Positions 8,637-31,972 of a stretch of DNA of 31,973 nt are shown piece by piece (the first letter of the stretch is position 1; each line of letters opens with the position of its first letter). Origin of the DNA: a virus (taxonomy: Duplodnaviria > Caudoviricetes); the IMG/VR virus record IMGVR_UViG_3300010376_000096, positions 1-31,973 of that record. The stretch is one strand, 5' to 3'. The notes under the pieces were generated by a model, which was given only the letters and a program-made list of their open reading frames with translations, did not search any database and was not told where the DNA came from. The translations under genes and the position numbers were made by a program.

Positions 8637-10573
8637 AGAAGATCCTCCTTGCAGGTGTTGCGCTGCTCGCTCTCGTAGGCACCGCAGGCGCTCAACCCGC
8701 CGGCCAGTGCGCTGCGGGCCAAGTGTGGGCGAACCCAACGTCCTCCGCGGGCCAGTGTCGTCCAGCCGCCCTCGGCGGCGTGGGAGGTGTGTTCGACCAG
8801 AGCTTCGGCAACCTTTTCGGAACGCTGCCTTGGCGGAGCACCAACGGCATCGGAGGGTGGATTGCTTCCGCCGGTCCACAGCTGGGGTCTCCTCCTGGTG
8901 TCCCGGGAGGGCCGGCCCCGGGCTTTCTATACTTCTACGGAGGAGTCAACGGGAACTTCTTCGGCATCGGCGCAGCCCCATCCCCAACTGCGAACCAAGT
9001 CCTCAACTTCCCCGCGAGCCCTCCGGCTGCCGGGCAATCTTTGGTCGTTCAATCCTGGAACGCCGGGACAAGTACGGCAACTCTCCAATGGGCAGCGGGG
9101 GCGCTGCCGAGTCCTCCTGCATCCCCAACCTCTCAGTGGTTCCTTCGAGGCGACGGAGTCTGGTCGAAATCGCTGAACTCGAACGCTGCTGGATCCAGCG
9201 TCACATCGAATCCGACCGCAGGCGCGCAGTCTATGCTCAATCTCTTCCCTGCCGACTCGGGGGCGTCAGGGAATGCTGCTGTCCTCAATCTCTACAGCTA
9301 TTCAAACGGCTTCAACTACGCCGATACTATCAATTTCTGGAACGTGGGTGGGACTGGCGCGGTCCCCGCAACCACCACGACAGGAGGCTCGGTTCCCTTC
9401 ACCCTCGGCCAATTCGCTTGGGGAGGGTATGATACGAGCATTCCTGGTTTCACGGGCAATCAAGCTATCGTTCGAGTTACCGCTGCCCAGGCGTGGTCAT
9501 CCTCGAGCCATGATGCGTTTTATCAGTTCTTTGTAACCCCCATAAACTCGATCAGCACTACCCTTGCAGCGACCTTAAAGAAAGGTTTGTACGTCGGGTC
9601 CACCTCCAATCCCACGGACCCCGGTGTGGGGGTGGTGCAGAACGGACCGCAGACCTTTGCGGGGCTGGCGACGTGTAATTCGACAAGTGATGGAAGTGTC
9701 GCCTCCGTCACAGATTCGACGACGAATAGCTTCGGCGCCGTGATTGCGGGGGGAGGGTCGCTCCACGTCCAAGCATATTGCAACGGCTCCCAGTGGACGG
9801 TATCGGGAGGCGGGACCGCCATCGCGGGCGGGACACCGCCGAACTATCTATCCGGCCTCCTCATGCAGAATACGGGAGGCACGAACACAAACCAGATTGA
9901 TGTGGGCGCTGGCTCGGCGGCGGATAGCGGAAACACCGCCCTCATCAACTTCGTGGGCCAGACGGCGAAGGATCTGACGGTCCTGTGGGCCACGGGAAGC
10001 TCGAGCGGATGTCTTGAAGGCCCTGGAGCGATCGCCGATGGCACGTGGTGGATTTGGTTAATCTCCACAGGTTCCGTGAATGATATCCTGTGTTCTGCGT
10101 CGGCTACCTCTCCCACCATGACCCGACCGGGGGGCACGTACACTCTCAAGCGCCGCATTGGGGCGATTGTGCGAAAAGGGGGCAACAATCTCCTCTTCAC
10201 CCAACTCGGGAACGATTTTCTCTTGAAGGTCCCGCAGCATGATTTCGCGGCGCAGGCGGTGAGTTCGGCTGGAGTTTCGTTCACCTTCACCTCCTTCCCG
10301 AACGGCCTTTCTCTAAAAATCATCGGAAATTCGTGTATCTTCAACCCTTCCCTTACGACATCAATGTTCATCTTCGGTCCGGGTTTAATGAGCCCGGATC
10401 CCATCGCAGGTTACGGCGCCTCGACGATTTGGGCTGGATCGACTAACGGAAATTGTGCCCAGGTCCAAATCTACTCGAACACAACTGGTCAGCTCCGCTT
10501 CGTCAGCACGCGGGCGTCGGGAGATCAGGCGGATTTCACCGTGACGGGCTGGGCGGACACGAGGGGACAATGA
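8633..10573 (+). CDS. Tail/head fibre-like protein with N-terminal signal peptide, 8 Cys
   Basis: ATGA overlap at 8633; MKKILLAGVALLALVGTAGA-Q signal; fibre motifs FLRGDGVW, IAGGG..VQAYCNGSQW, YTLKRRIGAI and terminal GWADTRG; Gly/Ser/Thr-rich. Confidence 0.8.
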   Translation: MKKILLAGVALLALVGTAGAQPAGQCAAGQVWANPTSSAGQCRPAALGGVGGVFDQSFGNLFGTLPWRSTNGIGGWIASAGPQLGSPPGVPGGPAPGFLYFYGGVNGNFFGIGAAPSPTANQVLNFPASPPAAGQSLVVQSWNAGTSTATLQWAAGALPSPPASPTSQWFLRGDGVWSKSLNSNAAGSSVTSNPTAGAQSMLNLFPADSGASGNAAVLNLYSYSNGFNYADTINFWNVGGTGAVPATTTTGGSVPFTLGQFAWGGYDTSIPGFTGNQAIVRVTAAQAWSSSSHDAFYQFFVTPINSISTTLAATLKKGLYVGSTSNPTDPGVGVVQNGPQTFAGLATCNSTSDGSVASVTDSTTNSFGAVIAGGGSLHVQAYCNGSQWTVSGGGTAIAGGTPPNYLSGLLMQNTGGTNTNQIDVGAGSAADSGNTALINFVGQTAKDLTVLWATGSSSGCLEGPGAIADGTWWIWLISTGSVNDILCSASATSPTMTRPGGTYTLKRRIGAIVRKGGNNLLFTQLGNDFLLKVPQHDFAAQAVSSAGVSFTFTSFPNGLSLKIIGNSCIFNPSLTTSMFIFGPGLMSPDPIAGYGASTIWAGSTNGNCAQVQIYSNTTGQLRFVSTRASGDQADFTVTGWADTRGQ

Positions 10574-11589
10574 AGACCTTCACAGCTCTCGCTCTCCTTA
10601 CGGTCCTGGTGGGCGCTGTAGGCGCCCGTGAGGCGGGGCGTCCCGACGATCGGAATGTGTATGGCCTCCCGGATATCAACACCGCCGCAGGTAGTTTCGG
10701 CCCGATTCAATGGTCTGCTGCCGGGAAGATCCAAGTCTTCCCTTCGAATGTTCCGTCAATTGCATGGTTCGTAGCGGTAGGGCAATCGCACATCGTTAAT
10801 GTATCCGTCCCTCCTCTTACAACATACTACTTCCCCACAAATGGTGCGAAGTGCATCAATCTCTCCCCGTATAACGGCAACTACTACATCGCCTCCGACC
10901 CTGTCATCGGAGCTACCATTCAGGTCAATGGAGCCGATCTCGGATGGTTGAGCAGGTTGTGTGATCAGCTGATTTCAGGAACGGGGGGTGCAGGTGGGAA
11001 GTATGGAACGTCCGGCGTTGGCTTGATCACGGTGGGCATTGGAGGGTCCTCCGTATGTGAGTGGGCGCCGGTTTCCTCAGCCGCCCCGTGTCCGGCGGGC
11101 TCTACTCTAGGAAGAACGAACCTCAGACTTCAGATCGCAGCGCAATGGCTCACTACCCTCGGCATCACGCCGCGAGCATGGCTATACCAACAAGGTCAGG
11201 CGGATTGTGTTGGGGGGATTTCTCTAGCAACCTACGCCTCGAACCTCCGTGCTGTGATCTCGTATGAACGTGGGCTGGCGGCAGCTCGAGCGAATGACCA
11301 GTGGATTATTTCTCAAGACACCTACAATCAAACTAGTGGGACGTTCGGCAACGGTGTGCATGGCGGCGCGAGTCCCCCCTTCACCTGCCCCGATACCATT
11401 GCCCAGGCAGCAACGAACGTCGGCGGCGATACACATAACTTCGTCGGTCCGAATATGGACGCCATTCCAGGGGGTGGGGTAGCGAATACCTACACCGACG
11501 GCGCTCATTACACCTCCGTGACGGGGAATATCTGGGCCGCGCAGCAATGGTCGAGTTCGATCATCAACACCTGTGGGAGTGCCTGCTGA
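10570..11589 (+). CDS. SGNH-family (sialate O-acetylesterase/SASA-like) hydrolase with signal peptide, 8 Cys
   Basis: ATGA overlap at 10570; MKTFTALALLTVLVGAVGA-R signal; GQS(H), GIGGSS, QQGQAD, DGAHY motifs correspond to the GQSN/QGESD/DxxH blocks. Confidence 0.8.
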   Translation: MKTFTALALLTVLVGAVGAREAGRPDDRNVYGLPDINTAAGSFGPIQWSAAGKIQVFPSNVPSIAWFVAVGQSHIVNVSVPPLTTYYFPTNGAKCINLSPYNGNYYIASDPVIGATIQVNGADLGWLSRLCDQLISGTGGAGGKYGTSGVGLITVGIGGSSVCEWAPVSSAAPCPAGSTLGRTNLRLQIAAQWLTTLGITPRAWLYQQGQADCVGGISLATYASNLRAVISYERGLAAARANDQWIISQDTYNQTSGTFGNGVHGGASPPFTCPDTIAQAATNVGGDTHNFVGPNMDAIPGGGVANTYTDGAHYTSVTGNIWAAQQWSSSIINTCGSAC

Positions 11590-13631: not shown

Positions 13632-13936
13632 TGGCGAAAGGTCACAACGAAAATCCTGACAGCGGGTATTCTCATTTCCACGAAAGTGGAGAGAAGAGCC
13701 CGCACGGAGGGAAGCTCGTGGGTCACGTTCCCAGCGCGAGTGCCGGACATGGCAAGAATGGCGAAGCTCCCGGCCATAAGACAATCGGGAAGCGGCAGAT
13801 GCCGCAGAGACGGGAAATCCCGTCTGGAGATAAGCCGCCGGCGATGAACAACGATAGCATGGAGGAGCCCGGCACGATGGATATGGGCGGGCAGTCCATG
13901 CTCGGTTGGCACGAGAACCCGGGGAAAGCGCCGTGA
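13631..13936 (+). CDS. Small disordered His/Gly/Pro-rich hypothetical protein
   Basis: GGAG SD, TGATG overlap upstream and GTGA overlap with the endolysin. Confidence 0.6.
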   Translation: MAKGHNENPDSGYSHFHESGEKSPHGGKLVGHVPSASAGHGKNGEAPGHKTIGKRQMPQRREIPSGDKPPAMNNDSMEEPGTMDMGGQSMLGWHENPGKAP

Positions 13937-14874
13937 GGATTGTCATATCCTCAGGTCACGGCGCCAAGGTCCGCGGCGCGAAGGGCTATCTCGATGAGGT
14001 GGACGAGGCGCGCCGCGTTGTGGAGGAGGTTGCGGTCTTGCTCCGCAATCTGGGAGTGGAGGTGAAGACATTCCACGACGACACTTCCACCACCCAGAGC
14101 CAGAACCTCAAGACCATTGTGGACTACCACAATGCTCAAGCACGTGAGTATGATGTGAGCGTTCACTTCAACGCCTATCAAACCACATCGAAGCCGATGG
14201 GATGTGAGGTGTTGTACGTCAGCCAAGGCGAGTTGGCGGCTGCTGTGTCGATGGCGATGTCCGAAGCGGGAGGACTCGTAAATCGGGGCGCCAAGAAGCG
14301 CACGGACTTGTACTTCCTCAACAACACCAAAAAGCCGGCGATTTTGCTTGAGGTGTGTTTCGTCGACTCCTCCACCGACGCGAACCTCTATCGGGCGAAT
14401 TTCTCCGCCATCTGTGATGCGATCGCAGGAGTTGCCACTCCTGTGAACGCTGCAGTCCCGATCGATCCCGAGGACCAGACGCAGAGCCCAGCTCCAATCC
14501 CCTGGAACCAAACCGACATCGTGTGTACGAAGTTTGGAGGGAAGGCAGACCCCAACACCTCGGCCTACGATCCGAAAAAGACCCTAAACGACACGGATAT
14601 GTATGTCGCCCTTCCCTACAAATTCAAGGGCTCTCGGCCGAGGGTAAAGGTGTATAACCGGGAGGTGAACGTGTCCGCCGTGGGGGAGATCTGGGATGTC
14701 GGGCCCTGGAACACGAACGATCCCTATTGGGAAACGAATACTCGACCGCAGGCTGAGACGGGGACGGATATGAGGGGGAGGAAAACGAACAAAGCTGGAC
14801 TCGATGTGTCGCCAGCGATGGATCGAGCTCTGGGGTTGAATGGGAAGGGAAAGGTGGATTGGGAGTTCATATAA
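13933..14874 (+). CDS. Endolysin: Amidase_3 plus C-terminal double-psi-beta-barrel (RlpA-like) domain
   Basis: ISSGHG, DEV, SVHFNA, ILLEVCF Zn-amidase motifs; linker; YVALP...VKVYN...IWDVGPW...GLDVSPA DPBB pattern. GTG start at 13933. Confidence 0.88.
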   Translation: MRIVISSGHGAKVRGAKGYLDEVDEARRVVEEVAVLLRNLGVEVKTFHDDTSTTQSQNLKTIVDYHNAQAREYDVSVHFNAYQTTSKPMGCEVLYVSQGELAAAVSMAMSEAGGLVNRGAKKRTDLYFLNNTKKPAILLEVCFVDSSTDANLYRANFSAICDAIAGVATPVNAAVPIDPEDQTQSPAPIPWNQTDIVCTKFGGKADPNTSAYDPKKTLNDTDMYVALPYKFKGSRPRVKVYNREVNVSAVGEIWDVGPWNTNDPYWETNTRPQAETGTDMRGRKTNKAGLDVSPAMDRALGLNGKGKVDWEFI

Positions 14875-21018: not shown

Positions 21019-24000
21019 ATGGACGACATGCAGCTCTACAAAGACCTCGCGGATTCGGGCTATACCCCGCCTTCGCCGCATATCGACGAGGCGGATAAAG
21101 ATCTCAAAATGAACCCGCAGGAAAAGTCCTTTTATGAAAGGCATTTGAAGAATTTGTGGGGTTCGGGAGGGGTGGATAATGAAGATGGGACGAGGTCGAG
21201 CCTCTCCCAGGCCACAGTGGGGGTGGATAATAAGACGTACAATATCCCCACAGTGTGGGATGGCCAGCATCTGTCGACGGATCAGGCGTTCGCGCGGGCG
21301 CAGAAGGAGGGGCTAGATAGCTTCCCTTCATATAATTCTCTGGAGGAAGCGCAAAGCCGTTATAACCGGATGCATGATTATATGCAGAAGGATACCGGCG
21401 ATTGGGCGGGGATGCGCCAGCAACAGCCGGATATGATCCGGATGCGAAGGGCGTTCCGAGATGCTGGCTACGACTGGCCGGAGCCGACGAGGCCCTCAGG
21501 GCTTCCTAAGAGTTCAGATGATAGTAGCGATCCGGGAATCTTCCGGCTCGCGACGACTGCGTTGTTCAGAGGAATGGGACAGGGAACGACAGCATTCGGT
21601 CAGGGTATTCAGGCAATGATGCCTGGGACGAAGCTGGCGGATTTTGCGAACGCGCCGCCGGAAACTCAGGATAAGGTTTCGAAGTTGTTGAAAACACGTA
21701 TTGGGGAAGGGTGGTCAGATCCGCAATGGTGGGCCGTGCAGCTGATGTCGGGAGCGGGGGAGTCGGCGCCCTCGGCGGCTCTAGGAGGCTTGGGAATAGT
21801 TGGAGGCGGGGCCGTTGGTGGTCCGGCGGGCGCACTTGCAGGCGGCGCTGCAGGGTTCGGGGTCGGGAGCTTTGTGCAGGATCTCGTTCCGGCGTATCAG
21901 AGAGCGAAGGCGGAAGGTCTGAGTGATAAGGATGCTACGACGAGGGCGATCGTGGACAGTGGAATCGCGGGCGCGTTCGGCGCTACGATGGGCTTGGTGC
22001 CTGGAATCTCCTTCTTCGGCAAAGAGTCGCAAGCGATGGCGAATGGGGAGATCGCTAAGGTCCTCCGGCGCCCCGTTATGGAGATGTTGACACAAATCGG
22101 TGTTGTGCAGCCGGCTCTCATGGGTGCTCAGACGGCAGCTACAGCTGTCGCTGAAGGCAAGGATATTGATCCGGGGGATATTTTCACCTCAGCCATAATG
22201 GGAGCGGGGACTGGGGGGATGCTCTTCGGCTCCCATTATGTGGGAGGGAAGATCGCTCGGGGATTGTATGGAAGGGGTGTCCCACCTGAGGCGCAGACGG
22301 CAGCTACTCCAAAAACAGCGGGAGAGGCGTTTGAGGCTGCTACTTCACAAGGGAAGGAGCCGCCTCCGGTGGGTCCTACGGCCGATGTGTATGATGAAAA
22401 ACAGGCGAAGGAGGCTGAGAAGGGCCAGGCTACGGAAGAAAAAGTAACCCCGAAGAAGATCAAGGAAATCAAAACTCCGGAGGAGGAGGAACAGGCCTAT
22501 AAAGACGCAGTTGATTTTGTTCAAGGAAGGGAGACCGTCGGAACAAGTGTGATCCAGCGGCAGCTGGGGTTGAGGTATGGTGCGGCGGCTAATATCATCG
22601 ACCGGATGGAGAAGGAAGGAATTGTCAGCCCTCCGGATTCGAGAGGGAAGAGGACGGTTTTGAAGGAAGAGGCGGCGCCGGCGGAAGCGCCGGAGAAGAA
22701 GAAAGTCGAAGTTCCTTCGGAGCCGGAGGGGGGTGATTTGTACGATCGTGCGGTTGATTTGACGAAACAGAAAGGAGGGACGGTCACGCCTTCCGACATT
22801 CAACAGCAATTGGTGAATGAAGGGTATGGTGTTTCTCGAGACGATGCACAGGGAATGCTTGATCGGATGGAAAAGGAGGGTGTAGTTGGCCCGAAAAATC
22901 CATTCGGACACCGGCAAGTCATGGCTGAAGCCACGCCGGAAGAGATGGCGAAAGCTCAAGCGGTGGGAGAGGAAGCAGCGCCTCCGCAAGCTGCAGCACC
23001 GGCTCCTCGACCGAAGAGGGGGAAAGGGTTAGGAGGGAAAGCGGAGGGAGGGAAAGCTCCTTCGGCGAAAGAGCTAACGGGGCTAAGTGAGGAGGAATGG
23101 CTCTCGAAGGATCTGACTAATATTCCTGGAGGGGGGAGTAGAGATTGGGCGTATGAGGTGAAGGTGTCTCGGAAGGGAGTAGGGAAACCGAAGGAAGTTC
23201 CACCTGAGGCGCAAAGGGAGATTGAGGGGGAGAGAGGAGAGCGGACTCTCGGCGGAATGGACAGGAAGGAATTCTATCGAGATCTGGCGAATGATATTCA
23301 CCACTATGGTCCGGCGTCAGCTACTGGACCCGAGTGGTCGAGATTCCTTCAGGATAACTCAGCCTTCATACGTGAGCATCCGACGGGGGTTTTGGATCTT
23401 CCCTCCTGGCTCGCAGATAAGTATGGGAAGATTAAGAAGGGAGATCTTCTCGCACATCTGGGGCAGCAGCAGATTGTGGATCATACTACGTACCTGCCAG
23501 TCACGATAGCCCATCGTGTGTCTCCTGGACCGTACACAAACCATGCAGAGCGGAATCTTTACTGGAAACCGTTGAATGGACGGCTGACTCCGGAGACAGT
23601 TGCCGTCGTTAGGACATCAGATAGGATTGATGTGGATGGGAAACATGTCCTCCACATCGAGGAAATCCGGCCGCCGGAGAGGCTCGGAGAACTCCCCTTT
23701 GGAACGAAGTTTCCGGAGGTGGTGTTCAAGAGGATGTTGAGGGTAGCAGCGGACGAGGGGTATGATAGGGTAACGTGGCCCACTGGGGATGCTCTAGCAG
23801 AAAGATATGCGGTCTCGCAGTATATTCCGCTCGATCATCCTCGAGCTATGTCATTCATGGAGAATGCGATCAAATTCTACGATGAGATATTGCCCACTAT
23901 TGCAGGCAACACAGCCATTATGCACGGCGTCGACGACGGATTTGTGAGACTGTTCAGAGATAATCTAAGTTCGCATTATATTGATGTGAGCCCAGCCGCG

Positions 24001-27000
24001 GGGAGCCGGGTGAGGCAGGGTAGTCCGGTTATGGCTGCTCCAATTACCCGGGACACAATCAGGATCGAGAGGGGGGTGGAAAGGAACTTCAACCCCGAGA
24101 CGCTGTCGAGGATGGGCGCCGTCGTGAGGGATATTGGGAAGAGGCTGGGGATTTCGAAGCCAGTTACCATAAGCTTCACGAGGGCGCAGCCGGCTTCCAT
24201 GATCTCCGCAGGGTTCAAGAGGACTCGAGGAGCGCAGTGGACGGACGCGACGGGATATCATATCTCCATCCACATGGATGAGTTTAGTGAGGGAGATATT
24301 CCTGGCATAGTGGGGGTTCTGGCTCATGAGATGGGGCATGCGGTCGAGAGGGATTTGTTTGAGAGAATGCCTCCATCCGTTAAGGCGATAATTAGAGCGG
24401 AGCATGATAGATGGCGACAGCAGGCGGAGAGGGGGACGTATAGTGAGATGATCCTGTCGAAGTCTCCCATGACGGTGCTGTCGGATTTCGAGAGCTTCAA
24501 TAAAGATCCGATGCTGAGCTTGACACCAAAAGACCAGGAGTATTGGCTCAGCTTCAAAGAATGGTTCGCAGATCAGGTTGCTCGATGGGCCACGACCTCG
24601 GCGAAGCCGATGGGGCTTCTCGAGCGGTCGATCCAGGGCATTGGGAAGGCGGTGAGGTGGGTTCATGAGCAGATGCTCGGGAGGTTTGGAATTAAGAATG
24701 CGAATCCTTCGGATGTGATGAAGGGGTGGTTGGATTCCCATCTGAGCGACGCGGAGCCATTTGGAGCGGATGTGTATGGGGAGTATCAGCTCCGGACCAT
24801 CCAGGATTCGAAGCAAGCGTTTATCAGGGATGGGACGCCGGAAGTGTCGGCTGTTCCTTTGCATATCACGAGTGTGCAGGGGAGAGATATTCTGGCGAAT
24901 GCTTCGAGGGAGATCGAGGGACTGAAGGTCGAGGGCGCCGCGGCGTTCGCCGGACATGCTGACCGGATGAATGGATTCTATCGATGGATGACTAGCCTTC
25001 CCCAGCTCGCAGAGATGAACCCGCACGTCAAACAGCTTCAGAAGCAAGTCGAGGGAATGAAGTTCTTTAATATCGAGCTGAGGAACGATGCGGATTTGTG
25101 GTTGTCGACGGCGCATATGTTTCGAAGGCTCGGGGGACCGCAGGCGGAAGCGGTCGCGAAGCTGATGGATCAATGGGGAAATATGCGCTATCGGACTCCG
25201 GATGAGATTGCTCTGAATATCCAGCGGCATCCGTCGAGGGATGAATTTGAAAAGATGGTGAGGGATAATGGGGTCTCGGAGCAGGGGCTGAACGTCTTCA
25301 AAAAGATGGTTGCGGATCTGGGCACGAGGTTGGATCAGATACAGCTCCACCTCGAGCAGAAGGCCATGAAGATCTCGGACCCGCAGGCGCAGGCGGAGGC
25401 GCTGCAGAACGCTAAGGACGCGATCGCGACCATTAAGTCGAGGCCTTATTTCCCAATCACCCGGAGGGGGATGTTCAACGCCCTTATTCACAGGAATGGT
25501 GAACCGACGGGTTTCCGACGCTTCGATACGGAGAAGCAGAGGGATGCCTGGGCGAATAAGATGGAAGGGCAGATTAAGCCGGATGAAAAGATTTCGAGAG
25601 GGAAGTTCAACAAAGACACGGAGCCGATGTTTAATCTTCCTCAGCAGTTGCTGGATACGTATGAGAAGGGGGATTTCAAACTCTCCCAGAGCCAACGCGG
25701 CGCGATGAAGCTTTTGAAGTATGAGCATCTTGTGGATCCTGCATATCAGGATCCCATGGATGCGAAGATGCTGATGAGGAGCTATGCAAAATTCTTCTTT
25801 CATTCTGGGAGGTATTTTGCTAGAGCAAAGTGGATTGATCAGTTCAACGAGAATATTAGGTCTCTGAGAATGGAGAGGTTTAATCGAGAGAACTCGGATA
25901 AGATTGATGATATGGCGAATTTCATGGCGAAGCATCGTGACTATGTCATGGATCCGAAATCGGATTTCGCGGCGCTGCGGGGCTTGATTTTCAACATGCG
26001 GTTGGGCTTCTCTCCCACAACAGCCTCTCTCTACCTCACCCAGACGCCGTTGGGCACCATACCGTGGCTCGAGGCGCACTTCGGGAATGGCAAGGGAGTG
26101 CTCGCAGTATCGAAGGCGATGCTGAGGACGAAGAACTATTATAGCTCGGATAAGGTAAAGGCATCGACGGCCTCAGAGCTTCGGCTGACGAGAGAGGGTC
26201 AGAGGCTGGGAGCGCTGGATGCGGGCGCTGCGCCGGCGCTCGCAGGGATGAGCGAGGATAGAAATCTGCCGCCTTCCTTCGGGGGGAATAAGCTGGAGGC
26301 GGCTTATAATAAATGGCAGGAGACAGCAGGGACGCTGTTGCATCTCGCAGATTCGTTTAACAGAAAGACAGCCTACGACGCGGCGTCTCAGCTCGCCCTT
26401 GAGAACCCCTCGGCGAAATATCTAGATCGGGTAGAGCAGGCGTATCCGCAAACGTACGAGGATCTGATAAACAAGGGCTATACGAGAGATGAAGCTCGAG
26501 CAGTCCTCGCTGGAATGCATACTGTCGATCAAACCCACTTCACATACCAGAGGTGGGCGCGGCCGCAGTTCATGTGGGGAGGTGTGAGGTCATCCCTATT
26601 CATGTTCCAGTTCTGGAAGCAGAACATGCTATTCATGCTCTGGAACTATCCAAGTGTGGCGGTTAGGTCGCTTTTGGTGATGTCGGCAATGGCGGGGATG
26701 GCTGGGCTGCCGTTTGCTCAGGATATCAAGGGATTGTTGAAGGCGGTAGGGTGGCAGCTTTTTGGGAAGGATTGGGATATTGAGAAAGAAATCCGAGAGT
26801 GGGTGGAGTCTACGTTTGATGGCCGTGTAGATCCGGACATCCTGCTTCATGGGCTGTCGAGGAATAGTATGGGCATCCCGCAGGTGCTGGACGCGATGGG
26901 ACATGTGCCGTATCCTAACCTCGATCGCTCCTCGGCGATCGGGGTGGGGGATGTGCTGTCTTTCCTGCCCCTCGAACAGCTCGGCCCGAAGAAGGATCCG

Positions 27001-27636
27001 CAGAGGGCGCTGGCGCGAATTGAGCAGGACGCGGCGGGTGCGGCCTTCGGCTTCGGGGCGGATTTGTATAACTTCCTTATCGCTTCGAAGCTGGATTGGA
27101 CAGACGCAAAGCGATGGGAAAGGGTGATGCCTCATGCGATGCTCAATGCATCGCGAGCTTTTCGTTGGTATAGGGAGGGGATGGAAAGGGACCAGAGTGG
27201 GAACCCTGTTGTGAAGTTCGACCCACACGATACTACGCAGATGATGGAGATCCTTGCACGCGCTGCGGGTTATAATCCCACCCGGCTCACGGCGCAATAC
27301 GAAATGCGAACCATGATGGAGGATCGGAAACAGTTCTGGGAGCTGAAGAAGCAGGGGATTATGGAGCAGTTCTGGCAGACTGTGAAGACGCAGGACGGGG
27401 ATGCGAGGAAGCGCGTGATGGGGGCGATTAGGGAGTTCAACGCCACTCTCCCGGCGGAGATGAAGCCGATGGTTGCAATTACGGGGGAGGGGATCGACGC
27501 GATGATTAAGAGGAAGATGGAGGTGAAGATGGAGCGTGAGAGGGGGACGGCGCCGCCGAAGGAGATGCCGCTTCTTCGATCGATCCAACGATTGTTCCCG
27601 AGCGCCGACAGTGTGGCGAGGCAGACGGTGAGGTGA
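21019..27636 (+). CDS. Giant (2205 aa) polyvalent internal virion/ejection protein
   Basis: Gly/Ala hydrophobic segments, two FtsK-gamma-like domains (22498-22662, 22735-22923), HEMGH zincin motif (24325-24339) with downstream EWFA, PLxRFG-like YFPITRRG (about 25447), helical C-terminus; last gene of the structural operon. Confidence 0.85.
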   Translation: MDDMQLYKDLADSGYTPPSPHIDEADKDLKMNPQEKSFYERHLKNLWGSGGVDNEDGTRSSLSQATVGVDNKTYNIPTVWDGQHLSTDQAFARAQKEGLDSFPSYNSLEEAQSRYNRMHDYMQKDTGDWAGMRQQQPDMIRMRRAFRDAGYDWPEPTRPSGLPKSSDDSSDPGIFRLATTALFRGMGQGTTAFGQGIQAMMPGTKLADFANAPPETQDKVSKLLKTRIGEGWSDPQWWAVQLMSGAGESAPSAALGGLGIVGGGAVGGPAGALAGGAAGFGVGSFVQDLVPAYQRAKAEGLSDKDATTRAIVDSGIAGAFGATMGLVPGISFFGKESQAMANGEIAKVLRRPVMEMLTQIGVVQPALMGAQTAATAVAEGKDIDPGDIFTSAIMGAGTGGMLFGSHYVGGKIARGLYGRGVPPEAQTAATPKTAGEAFEAATSQGKEPPPVGPTADVYDEKQAKEAEKGQATEEKVTPKKIKEIKTPEEEEQAYKDAVDFVQGRETVGTSVIQRQLGLRYGAAANIIDRMEKEGIVSPPDSRGKRTVLKEEAAPAEAPEKKKVEVPSEPEGGDLYDRAVDLTKQKGGTVTPSDIQQQLVNEGYGVSRDDAQGMLDRMEKEGVVGPKNPFGHRQVMAEATPEEMAKAQAVGEEAAPPQAAAPAPRPKRGKGLGGKAEGGKAPSAKELTGLSEEEWLSKDLTNIPGGGSRDWAYEVKVSRKGVGKPKEVPPEAQREIEGERGERTLGGMDRKEFYRDLANDIHHYGPASATGPEWSRFLQDNSAFIREHPTGVLDLPSWLADKYGKIKKGDLLAHLGQQQIVDHTTYLPVTIAHRVSPGPYTNHAERNLYWKPLNGRLTPETVAVVRTSDRIDVDGKHVLHIEEIRPPERLGELPFGTKFPEVVFKRMLRVAADEGYDRVTWPTGDALAERYAVSQYIPLDHPRAMSFMENAIKFYDEILPTIAGNTAIMHGVDDGFVRLFRDNLSSHYIDVSPAAGSRVRQGSPVMAAPITRDTIRIERGVERNFNPETLSRMGAVVRDIGKRLGISKPVTISFTRAQPASMISAGFKRTRGAQWTDATGYHISIHMDEFSEGDIPGIVGVLAHEMGHAVERDLFERMPPSVKAIIRAEHDRWRQQAERGTYSEMILSKSPMTVLSDFESFNKDPMLSLTPKDQEYWLSFKEWFADQVARWATTSAKPMGLLERSIQGIGKAVRWVHEQMLGRFGIKNANPSDVMKGWLDSHLSDAEPFGADVYGEYQLRTIQDSKQAFIRDGTPEVSAVPLHITSVQGRDILANASREIEGLKVEGAAAFAGHADRMNGFYRWMTSLPQLAEMNPHVKQLQKQVEGMKFFNIELRNDADLWLSTAHMFRRLGGPQAEAVAKLMDQWGNMRYRTPDEIALNIQRHPSRDEFEKMVRDNGVSEQGLNVFKKMVADLGTRLDQIQLHLEQKAMKISDPQAQAEALQNAKDAIATIKSRPYFPITRRGMFNALIHRNGEPTGFRRFDTEKQRDAWANKMEGQIKPDEKISRGKFNKDTEPMFNLPQQLLDTYEKGDFKLSQSQRGAMKLLKYEHLVDPAYQDPMDAKMLMRSYAKFFFHSGRYFARAKWIDQFNENIRSLRMERFNRENSDKIDDMANFMAKHRDYVMDPKSDFAALRGLIFNMRLGFSPTTASLYLTQTPLGTIPWLEAHFGNGKGVLAVSKAMLRTKNYYSSDKVKASTASELRLTREGQRLGALDAGAAPALAGMSEDRNLPPSFGGNKLEAAYNKWQETAGTLLHLADSFNRKTAYDAASQLALENPSAKYLDRVEQAYPQTYEDLINKGYTRDEARAVLAGMHTVDQTHFTYQRWARPQFMWGGVRSSLFMFQFWKQNMLFMLWNYPSVAVRSLLVMSAMAGMAGLPFAQDIKGLLKAVGWQLFGKDWDIEKEIREWVESTFDGRVDPDILLHGLSRNSMGIPQVLDAMGHVPYPNLDRSSAIGVGDVLSFLPLEQLGPKKDPQRALARIEQDAAGAAFGFGADLYNFLIASKLDWTDAKRWERVMPHAMLNASRAFRWYREGMERDQSGNPVVKFDPHDTTQMMEILARAAGYNPTRLTAQYEMRTMMEDRKQFWELKKQGIMEQFWQTVKTQDGDARKRVMGAIREFNATLPAEMKPMVAITGEGIDAMIKRKMEVKMERERGTAPPKEMPLLRSIQRLFPSADSVARQTVR

Positions 27637-28903: not shown

Positions 28904-29734
28904 TCATTTCACTTCCTCACAATCTCCCCAAGAGATGGATGATGCAGAGATCTTCCAGGGGATATGAAGGGGGGTGGGATAGGGAACGGGGATGTCGAGT
29001 GCCCTTCTAATCACGTCGAGAGTCCTTGGATCGAAGCGGTGGGAGGGGATTTGGAAGACGAGGGAGTCGTGAACTTGTAAGAGCATCTCGACCCAGGGGC
29101 AGGTCTGCTCGAGGTTGAGGGCGCCGCGGAAACACACCTCAGCCACTGTCCCCTGAGGGATCCAGGCGAGAGCTTGGGTGAATAGAGAGTCGAGGCGGTC
29201 GAAGTAGATGATGCGGTAGCCGAATTTGTTGGATACGGAGCGTTTCGCTTTCAGGTCTGCTTGGACCCGGTGGTGCCAGTCCCTGATGCCGGGGTGTTTA
29301 CGAAACCAGTTAAGCTGGAAACGTTCAGCCATTGCAACTCGCCAGCCAAAGGTGACGGCGAGGGTGCGCGCCGCGGCGCCGTAGTTTGTTCCATGAACCC
29401 CCGACTTGAGCTGCTGTCGGATGGTGTGGCGTCTGGGATGCTTAAGTGGCAGCCCAGAAAACTCCGGGCCAAAAAGCTCATTCGCGTTCTCCGTGTGGAG
29501 GTCATAACCGCTCAGGATCTGATCGATCAGAAGTTGATCGTTACTCTCAGCAGCCACAACGAGGGCGTCGGCGCCGGTTAGATCGGCGTCGATCATCACA
29601 TAGCCAGGATCGGGAATGAAGAGCTTCCTAACATTCGGAAGGACGATTCTTTGCGACGAGTCGGAGCTGGGCGATATTTCCGAGGAAGGTGTTGCCGTCG
29701 GGCCCTCGTCCTTCTGGGACTGTGAAATATGCAT
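28904..29734 (-). CDS. polA: DNA polymerase A, C-terminal catalytic subunit (motifs A, B, C)
   Basis: NVRKLFIPDPGY, DADLTGAD (A), DLHTENA, RQQLKSGVHGTNYG (B), QVHDSLVF (C). Start ATG 29734 has a GAAGGA SD; 29752 is an alternative. Confidence 0.88.
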   Translation of the reverse strand: MHISQSQKDEGPTATPSSEISPSSDSSQRIVLPNVRKLFIPDPGYVMIDADLTGADALVVAAESNDQLLIDQILSGYDLHTENANELFGPEFSGLPLKHPRRHTIRQQLKSGVHGTNYGAAARTLAVTFGWRVAMAERFQLNWFRKHPGIRDWHHRVQADLKAKRSVSNKFGYRIIYFDRLDSLFTQALAWIPQGTVAEVCFRGALNLEQTCPWVEMLLQVHDSLVFQIPSHRFDPRTLDVIRRALDIPVPYPTPLHIPWKISASSISWGDCEEVK

Positions 29735-29870
29735 AGGGCATTCCTTCATCATCGAGAAGAACGACGTGGACGTGGTTGCAGCTACTGCAGAGGAAGGCTT
29801 TAACGGAGTGGGCTCTAACGAGGCCGTCGAGGGCTCTGACTTGTTTGGGGGAGAGAGGAAGGTTGATCAT
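29628..29870 (-). CDS. Small hypothetical protein with CxxC-x-H motif
   Basis: AAAGGA SD; CSSCNHVHVVL; overlaps the 5' end of the polA C-terminal gene in another frame. Confidence 0.55.
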   Translation of the reverse strand: MINLPLSPKQVRALDGLVRAHSVKAFLCSSCNHVHVVLLDDEGMPYAYFTVPEGRGPDGNTFLGNIAQLRLVAKNRPSEC

Positions 29871-29882
29871 GCCGAGATCCTT

Positions 29883-30242
29883 TCACAGACGGTAGGGGAG
29901 GAAGATGAGAGTGGCGATGGGCACACCATGCTCGATATAGCGGGCGTCGTCATTCCCATTGTGGAGGAGGACAATTAGCTCGTGATTAGAATTAATAAGA
30001 TGAGGGCTATCAGCGACGAATACACCACTACTCGCCAGGGACTCCCGAGACAGAACCAAACCAACCCGTCCAGGATCAAGAGTGATATGAATCCCAGATC
30101 GGATAGGAATTGTCGAATGGGGCGAGAGGAGCTTTTTGATTTCATGGTTGCTCTCCGAAAGGCAGAAGGAGAAGATGATGTAGGAGTAGAGCCCCTCCGG
30201 CGCTGGCAGGCAGGCTCGAGGGTGGGCACGATCGACTCTCAT
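29883..30242 (-). CDS. Degenerate trimeric dUTPase-like protein
   Basis: ATGA overlap with the polA-N stop; IRSGIHI, GLVLSRESLA, GVFVADSPHLI, LIVLLHN, IATLIF echo dUTPase motifs 2-4; motifs 1 and 5 not recognisable. Confidence 0.7.
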   Translation of the reverse strand: MRVDRAHPRACLPAPEGLYSYIIFSFCLSESNHEIKKLLSPHSTIPIRSGIHITLDPGRVGLVLSRESLASSGVFVADSPHLINSNHELIVLLHNGNDDARYIEHGVPIATLIFLPYRL

Positions 30243-31972
30243 TCTTCCTCTCCCTTTGGAACATTTTGAAGATTTGTGCCTCGTCCGAAGGCGTTCGAGG
30301 AACTCGACCACCGAAAGGTTTCAGTTCCACTCGTGTTGAACGAGCAGCGCATCCGCCCATCGGGGTCGAGTTCCGCTCCAATGAAAGTTGAGGAGAAGAC
30401 GCCGATACTCCGGGCTTGTTCGAGGAGGTCGAAGATCCTGGAAAACTCGGGGTTTTTCCTCTTCAGAACCTTCATGGCTTTGTCGTCTACGGTAGGTCGG
30501 CCCGTCTTCCGATGGCGCTGCCCCTCCATCCCGAGGATTTCGTAGAAGAGTGTGCGTTGCTGGATGGGCGAGGTCCACCAGGGGGCGCCGGGCTTGACGA
30601 TGTCGCGGGGGATGATGTAGTGGAGGCGGTTGTGAATGGTGCCGAGCGCCGCGGCGAGTTCGAAGCCGACCTGGGATCTTCGTTGTTTGTCAATATTGAT
30701 CCCTCGATTCATCATACGAAGGGCCAGCGCCATCTTCTGCTTCTCCCACTCCCAAAGTTCTCTCATTCCCATTCGCTCAACCAGCGCACGGAGTGCGGTG
30801 GCGCATTCGTAGGTCCGCAGGCAGTCGACTCCGTTATATTCGAGGTGGGTTCGCTCGTCGGCTTTGAGGTCCCAGTCTTTATTGTCATCTTTCCAATACC
30901 AATGGTAGCGACAGTAGAGAGATGATAGGTAGTCCAATCCCTTCGGCGTCCCCGGAAACAGAAGGTGATGTGCCGACATCGTATCGAAGTCCAACTTGGG
31001 ACTAACACCGAGCCAGTGCTGGATGTATTGGGTGTCGTAGAGGTAGTTCTGACCTTCGACCAGGATATTTGGATGCTGAAGGAGTCGCTGCATGAGACGG
31101 AGAAGGATCGCTTCTTGGTCGGGAGGCCAGAAGGATTCGAACCGGCGTTGAGGGAGGAGTCGGACGAAGGGGATGACGAGAGCAAGGGCGGAGGGGGTTG
31201 AGAACCCTCCGTCGGCGAAGCCGATGCAGGTGATGAGCCTACGGGATGTTTCGATGTCATTTGCGATCCTGATTCTCTCAGTCTTCGCTCTCTGGAGCCA
31301 GTTTTCGAGGATATAGGTTGCTTGATGGAACTCCGGGGGAGCAAGGATAGTCGGAGAGGCGAGAGGCCGCCAATCGTTAGCGAGTGCTGCCTTCACGCGG
31401 ACTCTGAGGTCGTGGAGTGTGGGGGCTCTGAGGTACCATTGTTGAAGAATTGCGGCGGGATGGAAGATCGGGAGGAGTGGGATTTTCGGCACGGGTATCG
31501 AGGAGGAGGGGTAGAGCATGGAGCCGCGCCATGACGAGATCCCTGCAGGCACACGAACGGTTGCACCATCTCCCGTTGATTCCGACGAAACGGAGGCGCA
31601 TTCCGTTAAGGCCCATAGAGCGTAATTCCCACAGACAATCACAAGTCTTGGACGTATTTCGCTTATCTGACGATATAAGCGATCTAACTCGGCCATGACT
31701 AATGGTGTGGGGTGAAGACCCCTCAAGCTCGGCTGAGATTTTGAGTAGGTGTTGAAGAAGCGCCATGTGTCGTTTCCTTTTGGTTTTTGAGCGATGACGT
31801 TGGTGCAGAAGATTTGACGGCGCTCGAGGCCCGCTTCCATCAGTATTCGATCGAGTTCTTTTCCAGAAGGGCCTTGGAAGGGACGGGAGAGCATCTCCTC
31901 CTCCGCCCCCCAAGACTCACCTACCAGGACAATCTCGGCATTCCTCGGACCGGAGGTTCCGTACCAGAGATC
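30239..31972 (-). CDS. polA: DNA polymerase A, N-terminal subunit: UDG-like domain, 3'-5' exonuclease and thumb (5'-truncated by window)
   Basis: Frame is open to the window edge (..AEIVLVGESWGAEEEMLSRPFQGPSG); UDG-like GESWG/PF.G.SG/TNV/FHPAA; ExoI DIET, ExoII QNYLYD, ExoIII YNGVD; ends TETFRWSSS...NLQNVPKGEEE. Confidence 0.88.
   Translation of the reverse strand, partial: DLWYGTSGPRNAEIVLVGESWGAEEEMLSRPFQGPSGKELDRILMEAGLERRQIFCTNVIAQKPKGNDTWRFFNTYSKSQPSLRGLHPTPLVMAELDRLYRQISEIRPRLVIVCGNYALWALTECASVSSESTGDGATVRVPAGISSWRGSMLYPSSSIPVPKIPLLPIFHPAAILQQWYLRAPTLHDLRVRVKAALANDWRPLASPTILAPPEFHQATYILENWLQRAKTERIRIANDIETSRRLITCIGFADGGFSTPSALALVIPFVRLLPQRRFESFWPPDQEAILLRLMQRLLQHPNILVEGQNYLYDTQYIQHWLGVSPKLDFDTMSAHHLLFPGTPKGLDYLSSLYCRYHWYWKDDNKDWDLKADERTHLEYNGVDCLRTYECATALRALVERMGMRELWEWEKQKMALALRMMNRGINIDKQRRSQVGFELAAALGTIHNRLHYIIPRDIVKPGAPWWTSPIQQRTLFYEILGMEGQRHRKTGRPTVDDKAMKVLKRKNPEFSRIFDLLEQARSIGVFSSTFIGAELDPDGRMRCSFNTSGTETFRWSSSSNAFGRGTNLQNVPKGEEE

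Follow-up and report, generated by a model that had tools for sequence, protein, structure and literature searches.

What would a pair of FtsK gamma domains do in a giant phage protein? FtsK is a bacterial chromosome pump, and gamma is its small DNA-reading head. The question is raised by IMG/VR virus record IMGVR_UViG_3300010376_000096, a 31,973-base stretch of DNA, 70% complete according to CheckV, which was analyzed over its full length and is called the window here. A giant open reading frame (ORF) of this record encodes a likely injected protein, hereafter the carrier, in which an insert absent from its relatives holds two gamma copies with changed recognition residues. We give a probability of about 50% to the reading that this pair is an optional accessory of the carrier, predicted to grip double-stranded DNA (dsDNA) loosely and independently of KOPS, the motif read by FtsK gamma and given here as GGGNAGGG. 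The gene and its insert are built as follows.

21019..27636, plus strand: giant ORF of 2205 amino acids (aa), last gene of the virion cluster; phrog_11358 and phrog_10089, DarB-like.
22426..23268, plus strand: lineage-specific insert with both gamma copies and their linkers, about 280 aa (residues ~470-750), edges approximate.
22480..22662, plus strand: FtsK-gamma copy 1, residues 489-549; keeps Q513 and R514 (E. coli Q1288 and R1289), Y520 and a basic wing; G, A and N at the positions of N1296, R1297 and R1300.
22666..22731, plus strand: linker between the copies, 22 aa, acidic and proline-rich, with a low predicted local distance difference test score (pLDDT).
22732..22926, plus strand: FtsK-gamma copy 2, divergent, residues 572-635; Q596 at the R1289 position, a 5-residue insertion (599-603) lengthening helix 2, and Asp 608 and 609 at the positions of N1296 and R1297.
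22927..23268, plus strand: linker behind copy 2, long, charged and rich in Pro, Ala, Gly and Lys.

A preliminary description of the locus had placed gamma-like peptides with charged, flexible flanks at 22498..22923 inside the giant protein. Both peptides are indeed in frame in ORF 21019-27636 (plus strand), running from Y494 (first base 22498) to M635 (last base 22923), and the flanks are charged and Pro/Ala-rich, with low pLDDT in the inter-copy linker. The search with the Ftsk_gamma profile proposed there as a check found PF09397 in two stretches of the whole protein (E 5.9e-22, 77.6 bits). Scanned alone, copy 1 scored 65.3 bits (E 4.1e-18), above the PF09397 cut-off of 30.6, and its sequence matched 2j5o, 2ve8 and 2j5p, gamma domains of known structure, with E values of 2e-7 to 7e-7. 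Copy 2 alone reached 28.0 bits (E 1.8e-6; 26.3 bits in a further scan), below the cut-off, and had no stretch of its own in the search of Protein Data Bank (PDB) sequences, with PF09397 still its best-scoring family. AlphaFold2 run without an alignment folded each copy into three helices and a wing (block pLDDT 72-88), joined by a low-confidence linker. Foldseek placed the single domains onto 2ve8, 2j5o, 2j5p and 2ve9 with a root-mean-square deviation (rmsd) of 1.7-1.8 over 55-65 columns, and in the VIA-align ranking for copy 2, 2ve8 came first (Z 9.9, rmsd 1.9, 61 aligned, 34% identity), and Fur-type and other low-identity winged helices followed within 1 Z; a BFVD search returned generic tandem winged-helix proteins.

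By family and predicted fold, both copies are hence FtsK-gamma winged helices. The assignment made in the preliminary description stands in full for copy 1. Copy 2 also folds on gamma and heads its structure ranking with 2ve8, but it stays below the family cut-off and is better called a divergent gamma than a full member by score. A chance helix-turn-helix match can be rejected for copy 1 from its PDB sequence matches and its 65.3 bits; for copy 2, it is unlikely given 28.0 bits and the 2ve8 alignment. The alpha/beta ATPase motor was not found, with zero PF01580 or PF17854 matches in the carrier or in 29 other scanned ORFs. The two copies agree in 45% of the profile columns. In a poorly supported tree of 256 of 264 domains (8 were removed for gaps) they were not sisters; only one sequence is closer to copy 2 than copy 1 is.

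The insert is a peculiarity of this carrier. Searching with the entire protein gave 24 homologues (P0003-P0026), which have the C-terminal part in common at 25-44% identity. PF09397 from Pfam matched none of these 24, and neither did a purpose-built gamma profile, which found one case (P0036) among 16 more distant matches; the gamma pair thus occurs in one of 25 family members. In a pairwise BLAST comparison, the closest homologue passes directly from the N-terminal module to the module that starts here at residue 752. Anchor-to-anchor distances, compared among 19 examined homologues of which 10 had both anchors (P0017, without the downstream module, was removed), were 113-161 aa in 9 homologues versus 403 aa here. 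Among related IMG/VR virus records, no gamma domain was seen in any of 23, including nine near-complete ones, with a control that was positive in 8 of 14 named genomes. The absence from 24 homologues and 23 records rules out the gamma pair as a conserved part of the ejection machine, and the carrier's gamma insert was found in no cultured phage. The preliminary description had also suggested a survey of phage ejection proteins; gamma does occur in six other giant proteins, but in none of the 24 full-length homologues. The pair would hence be an accessory outside the core ejection machine.

The insert is not a product of assembly. The whole stretch lies on a single 45.6-kb contig from the probable source run, and in two other runs the gamma domains occur on contigs with zero differing letters; an assembly artefact or chimera is thereby ruled out. 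The left edge of the insert is bridged by one contig of another run, and a bridging contig for the right edge was absent among the other runs. In a protein collection, the carrier protein was also found on a 45,979-base contig, and an exact-pattern scan of viral contigs for a longer contig of the phage gave 0 matches. Window DNA is present in soil metagenome runs, and an expression look-up listed no RNA run among the runs with window DNA. Four runs held no sequence variants of the stretch, so that a ratio of nonsynonymous to synonymous substitution rates (dN/dS) is not obtainable.

A domain pair seen in one of 25 family members might also be cargo. A cassette from a stand-alone phage gene could have landed in a tolerant linker, where it now drifts as a decaying or near-neutral passenger or serves as a protein-binding module. 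The below-threshold score of copy 2, with its acidic recognition-helix start, would fit such decay, as would an adjoining GNAT-like module that is also without its conserved stretch, and donors abound among stand-alone and tandem gamma genes. However, the copies are only 45% alike in profile columns and have nevertheless kept hydrophobic core and fold, which suggests long retention, and the domain recurs in the six other giant proteins. We regard the passenger scenario as possible, albeit doubtful.

What the copies may bind can be judged from their recognition surface. E. coli numbering was obtained from the 2j5p alignment and the peptide 1289-1297 in the available text of PMC5052618, and KOPS and XerD contact residues were taken from the available parts of PMC2533119 and PMC5052618 only. 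KOPS reading depends on N1296, R1300 and E1303, and a triple alanine mutant is KOPS-blind (PMC2533119). The equivalent residues are G, N and D in copy 1 and D, G and D in copy 2, so that none of the three is identical in either copy. In agreement with the preliminary description, the alignment shows the GYNRAA segment changed in both copies, and copy 2 carries five extra residues ahead of it. Single changes at KOPS positions do not prove a loss, since motor-linked gamma domains also have G at the N1296 position (3/7) and N at the R1300 position (2/7), with D common at 1303. Position 1297, however, is basic in all seven single-gamma motors and is A in copy 1 and D in copy 2. With 10 K/R and 10 D/E, copy 1 is close in charge balance to seven motor-linked gamma domains (8-13 and 7-8), and its wing is basic.

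On these grounds we consider it very unlikely that the pair binds phage or host KOPS and thereby orients DNA entry or blocks host FtsK and cell division. One KOPS is bound by three gamma domains (PMC5052618, as far as available), and tandem copies could thus add avidity; the fold is kept, and the substitutions G1296 and N1300 have precedents in motor-linked FtsK. Against this stand the mismatches at all three KOPS residues, the lost basic residue 1297 and the window itself, where KOPS was observed 13 times versus 9.4 expected, 8 on the plus and 5 on the minus strand, and is hence neither enriched nor polarized. Moreover, the few copies that are presumably injected would be unable to cover the chromosomal KOPS sites. 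KOPS-guided orientation and competition with host FtsK, both put forward in the preliminary description, accordingly find little backing.

Activation of host XerCD, also proposed there, fares hardly better. Injected copy 1 would in this case switch on XerD for integration at dif or for genome dimer resolution. Isolated and triple gamma domains do activate XerCD-dif recombination, free gamma in vitro only at high concentration (PMC3130261, available parts); activation is therefore possible in principle and unsupported here. A virion would presumably supply few copies. XerD is hydrogen-bonded by Q1288, R1289, R1292 and N1296, with R1289 as the key residue (PMC5052618). Copy 1 keeps two of these four, Q1288 and the key R1289, and has G at the R1292 and N1296 positions; copy 2 keeps Q1288 alone and has lost R1289, with its five extra residues lying in the contact loop. 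The retained R1289 says little, as it is the family default, present in 188 of 221 small motor-less copies.

Nor did a target show up in the DNA searched. The window, about 70% of the genome, contained 0 dif-like sites at <=2 mismatches to a proteobacterial consensus; ~14 kb of the genome lie outside the window. Two exact XerD-half-like words occur in it, each without the matching other half. A looser dif pattern gave 41 one-mismatch matches in 23 relatives, none of them exact, versus 51 for a reversed control, so that the dif-like site looked for did not appear above control. A tyrosine integrase is present in one of 23 related records, a distant provirus, and reliance on host XerCD would fit this scarcity. 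However, a search of GTDB genomes found no close family member, only 2 distant peptidase-domain loci. Taken together, we judge XerD activation to be highly improbable.

Comparison with other gamma copies suggests, as a lead, that the recognition surface is repeatedly eroded in giant proteins. R1289 is retained in 4/11 giant-protein copies compared with 31/32 motor-linked and 188/221 small motor-less ones, and R/K1297 in 2/11, 30/32 and 164/221, respectively. Since this set was drawn with the altered pair of the carrier as query and the 11 giant-protein copies, biased and not independent, stem from 7 proteins, the counts are a lead rather than a measured rate.

Changes that fall on a recognition surface might, on the other hand, mean a new specificity. 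The altered helix could read a phage-specific motif, for example at the leading genome end, and pause or orient entry, or it could aim the GNAT-like module at DNA or DNA-bound proteins. The core is kept while the surface changes differ between giant proteins, and the insert is immediately followed by a GNAT-like fold. This module is predicted with a pLDDT of 83 and a predicted template modeling score (pTM) of 0.80, and GNAT-fold proteins recur throughout its structural matches (best Z 8.8, rmsd 3.6, 130 aligned; 10 chains with Z >= 8), although these Z values are only slightly above the background of the tool and a common fold shows no function. But G, A and D account for most of the replacements, by which side-chain contacts are lost, and no polarized KOPS-shaped 8-mer in the window passed correction (best corrected p 0.051, not strand-specific). 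Furthermore, the GNAT-like module functions in homologues that have no gamma. Most of them have EExQSDxHQ in this module, and the carrier has lost the QSDxHQ part; the EExQSDxHQ module corresponds to no Pfam family. A re-programmed reader is therefore unlikely in our view.

It is quite unlikely, too, that giant injected proteins in general repeatedly capture gamma and rewrite its KOPS/XerD face into a programmable ejection checkpoint that pauses or orients entry or aims the GNAT-like module. If true, each phage would thereby have a DNA reader of its own where the ejection channel opens into the cytoplasm. As side observations on the GNAT-like module, homologue P0004 likewise is without the QSD stretch; for the module of a homologue, the ESM Atlas gave nothing but unnamed clusters (0.85), which is a lead only.

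We hence return to the loose grip, for which the remaining architecture of the carrier provides the setting:

21079..21429, plus strand: N-terminal mobile domain of no named family, residues 21-137, not matched in full-length homologues.
21766..22278, plus strand: Gly/Ala-rich, mildly hydrophobic module, predicted membrane-inserting, residues ~250-420, common to the homologues.
23251..24063, plus strand: helical lead-in and GNAT-like fold, residues 745-1015, without the QSDxHQ stretch kept in most homologues.
24301..24756, plus strand: zincin-like metallopeptidase domain, HExxH at 1103-1107 and E1181.
25384..27558, plus strand: conserved C-terminal region, common to DarB-like giant proteins of F116-like and other podoviruses; mildly hydrophobic stretch at residues 1870-1892.

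The carrier ORF is the last gene after those for terminase, SU10-like portal, capsid, adaptor and tail, and upstream of it lies a weak "DNA ejection protein" match (E 5e-4). Several unrelated domains (gamma pair, GNAT-like fold, zincin) in one large chain and the late virion gene location are traits of polyvalent proteins. Pfam matched no LPD domain, which is not required of all polyvalent proteins, either in the full-length chain or in four separately scanned parts. Residues H1103, E1104, H1107 and E1181 are invariant in 22 of 22 aligned sequences. From this sequence evidence, the carrier is likely a phage polyvalent protein and an ejection protein. Gene position, an N-terminal lysozyme or cell-wall hydrolase in two of 24 homologues and mild hydrophobic segments would be consistent with packaging in the head, ejection and inner-membrane insertion. 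The N-terminal mobile domain occupies the slot of the wall hydrolases in those two homologues; its 117 aa share 57% identity with a portion of a small ORF in the terminase-portal gap of an unrelated phage (L001:10001-10345), and the ESM Atlas has unnamed clusters only for it.

T7 gp16 offers a template for the layout. In the available text of PMC8954989, it has an N-terminal transglycosylase, TMH I (243-410) and, after it, a cytoplasmic part that binds DNA irrespective of sequence. The carrier is laid out alike, with a wall-hydrolase slot, a hydrophobic module, a large middle part and a second hydrophobic stretch, and mild hydrophobic stretches stand at places matching gp16 in the carrier and in four homologues checked. 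In contrast, gp16 is without a gamma domain, and the carrier is 900 aa longer and has the peptidase and GNAT-like modules. By analogy, the carrier might be packaged and ejected with the genome, its Gly/Ala-rich module might enter the inner membrane, and the insert just behind it would open the cytoplasmic part, as does gp16 from residue 411 onward. Copy 1 could then bind the DNA backbone via R514, R519 and its basic wing, with avidity provided by several subunits, while copy 2, with its acidic recognition-helix start, may contribute little or have decayed. Such a grip would hold or shield the entering DNA and keep the other domains of the carrier close. Among the proposals of the preliminary description, a co-injected module gripping DNA is thus the most likely.

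Several points weigh against this reading. Packaging is deduced from gene position only, the hydrophobic segments are weak (Kyte-Doolittle peak about 1.3), and the likeness to T7 gp16 is one of layout, not backed by sequence homology. Copy 2, with a pI of 5.1, is on the acidic side and may bind no DNA at all, and the erosion of giant-protein copies comes from the biased sample described above. Hints at the host also conflict: the best cultured-phage matches of gamma infect Rhodobacterales, those of the Amidase_3 endolysin (13906-14874, plus strand) infect Bacillus and Listeria, and those of the capsid Microcystis and Vibrio.

Judged by its Pfam and PHROGs gene set, the phage is a short-tailed phage, i.e., a podovirus. 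The window encodes a terminase, an SU10-like portal, a major capsid protein, an adaptor, a tail-collar protein, an amidase endolysin, a primase and a family A polymerase. The polymerase is spread over two ORFs (28904-31894, minus strand), of which 30239-31894 (minus strand) has uracil-DNA-glycosylase-like and 3'-5' exonuclease domains and 28904-29749 (minus strand) the remaining polymerase part. Between them lies a 141-aa ORF with a weak dUTPase likeness (E 8e-4); this may be a split gene or an intervening element. A weak sialate O-acetylesterase-like match (E 0.006) in the virion-cluster gene at 10453-11589 (plus strand) perhaps indicates a capsule-deacetylating tail protein.

Gamma domains are widespread beyond this carrier. 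The gamma pair as query retrieved 1470 cluster representatives at E 0.001, and the stretch matches 34 records of cultured or annotated phages. Among the best 149 other matches of the 1470, 87 have two copies and 12 have three, a share (99/149) inflated by the tandem query; with two giant proteins carrying two and three copies, tandem copies are rejected as a novelty. A Pfam scan of 82 of these best 149 showed gamma joined both to motors and to GapR, TIR, Mrr, ParB and InPase domains. The motor-less fusions form a wider mobile-domain theme, with GapR (P0051, P0057, P0080, P0149), TIR (P0064, P0078), Mrr nuclease (P0069), ParB (P0118) and InPase (P0090). The six other giant proteins with gamma comprise three with LPD38, one of which has two copies and an H-NS domain, one with a strawberry-notch helicase, one with a SNF2 helicase and one with three gamma copies.

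A separate observation concerns copy 1: a 36-base part of it (window 22594-22629) equals short contigs of two soil runs in 32 of 36 bases. A canonical gamma recognition helix can be read in their flanks, and they are probably bacterial ftsK genes; the match is too short for naming a donor.

Gamma in giant phage polyvalent proteins is already described, and the carrier adds one more case, so that the novelty implied earlier finds no support. In the available text of Iyer et al. 2017, the FtsK winged helix-turn-helix (wHTH) is an infrequent DNA-binding domain of polyvalent proteins, with dsDNA binding predicted (PMC5512222). These proteins, e.g., Cupriavidus WP_029307715, are likewise giant and multidomain, lie beside virion genes and combine a zincin-like metallopeptidase (MPTase) and a GNAT-like fold with rare FtsK wHTH cargo. 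The carrier differs by its tandem copies, the second of them divergent; the available text names the domain once, without copy number or recognition residues, and the architecture supplements of that paper may already include tandem cases. With FtsK/SpoIIIE gamma (PF09397; 2J5O, 2J5P, 2VE8, 2VE9, 5DCF) the carrier copies share sequence family and winged-helix fold. They differ in that the alpha/beta motor is missing, the KOPS and most XerD contacts are changed, and their place is internal rather than C-terminal. A motor-less gamma in another DNA-handling phage protein is the fusion to the small terminase of Bacillus phage Sam46/Sam112, in a report whose available part calls the role of phage gamma genes unknown (PMC8190038). 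There, the DNA-binding site of Sam46 is described as highly conserved and acts at packaging, whereas the carrier, a predicted ejection protein, has an eroded one. A literature search, with subscription journals mostly outside its coverage, found no ejection protein in which a function of gamma had been tested.

With no cultured phage carrying the insert, genetics on it is limited. The carrier family nevertheless provides a clean natural pair, with and without the gamma cassette. Its relevance lies in what motor-less FtsK-gamma domains do in phages, a theme already in print. If the erosion of the recognition surface holds in an unbiased survey, gamma copies in giant proteins would not do the jobs of FtsK.

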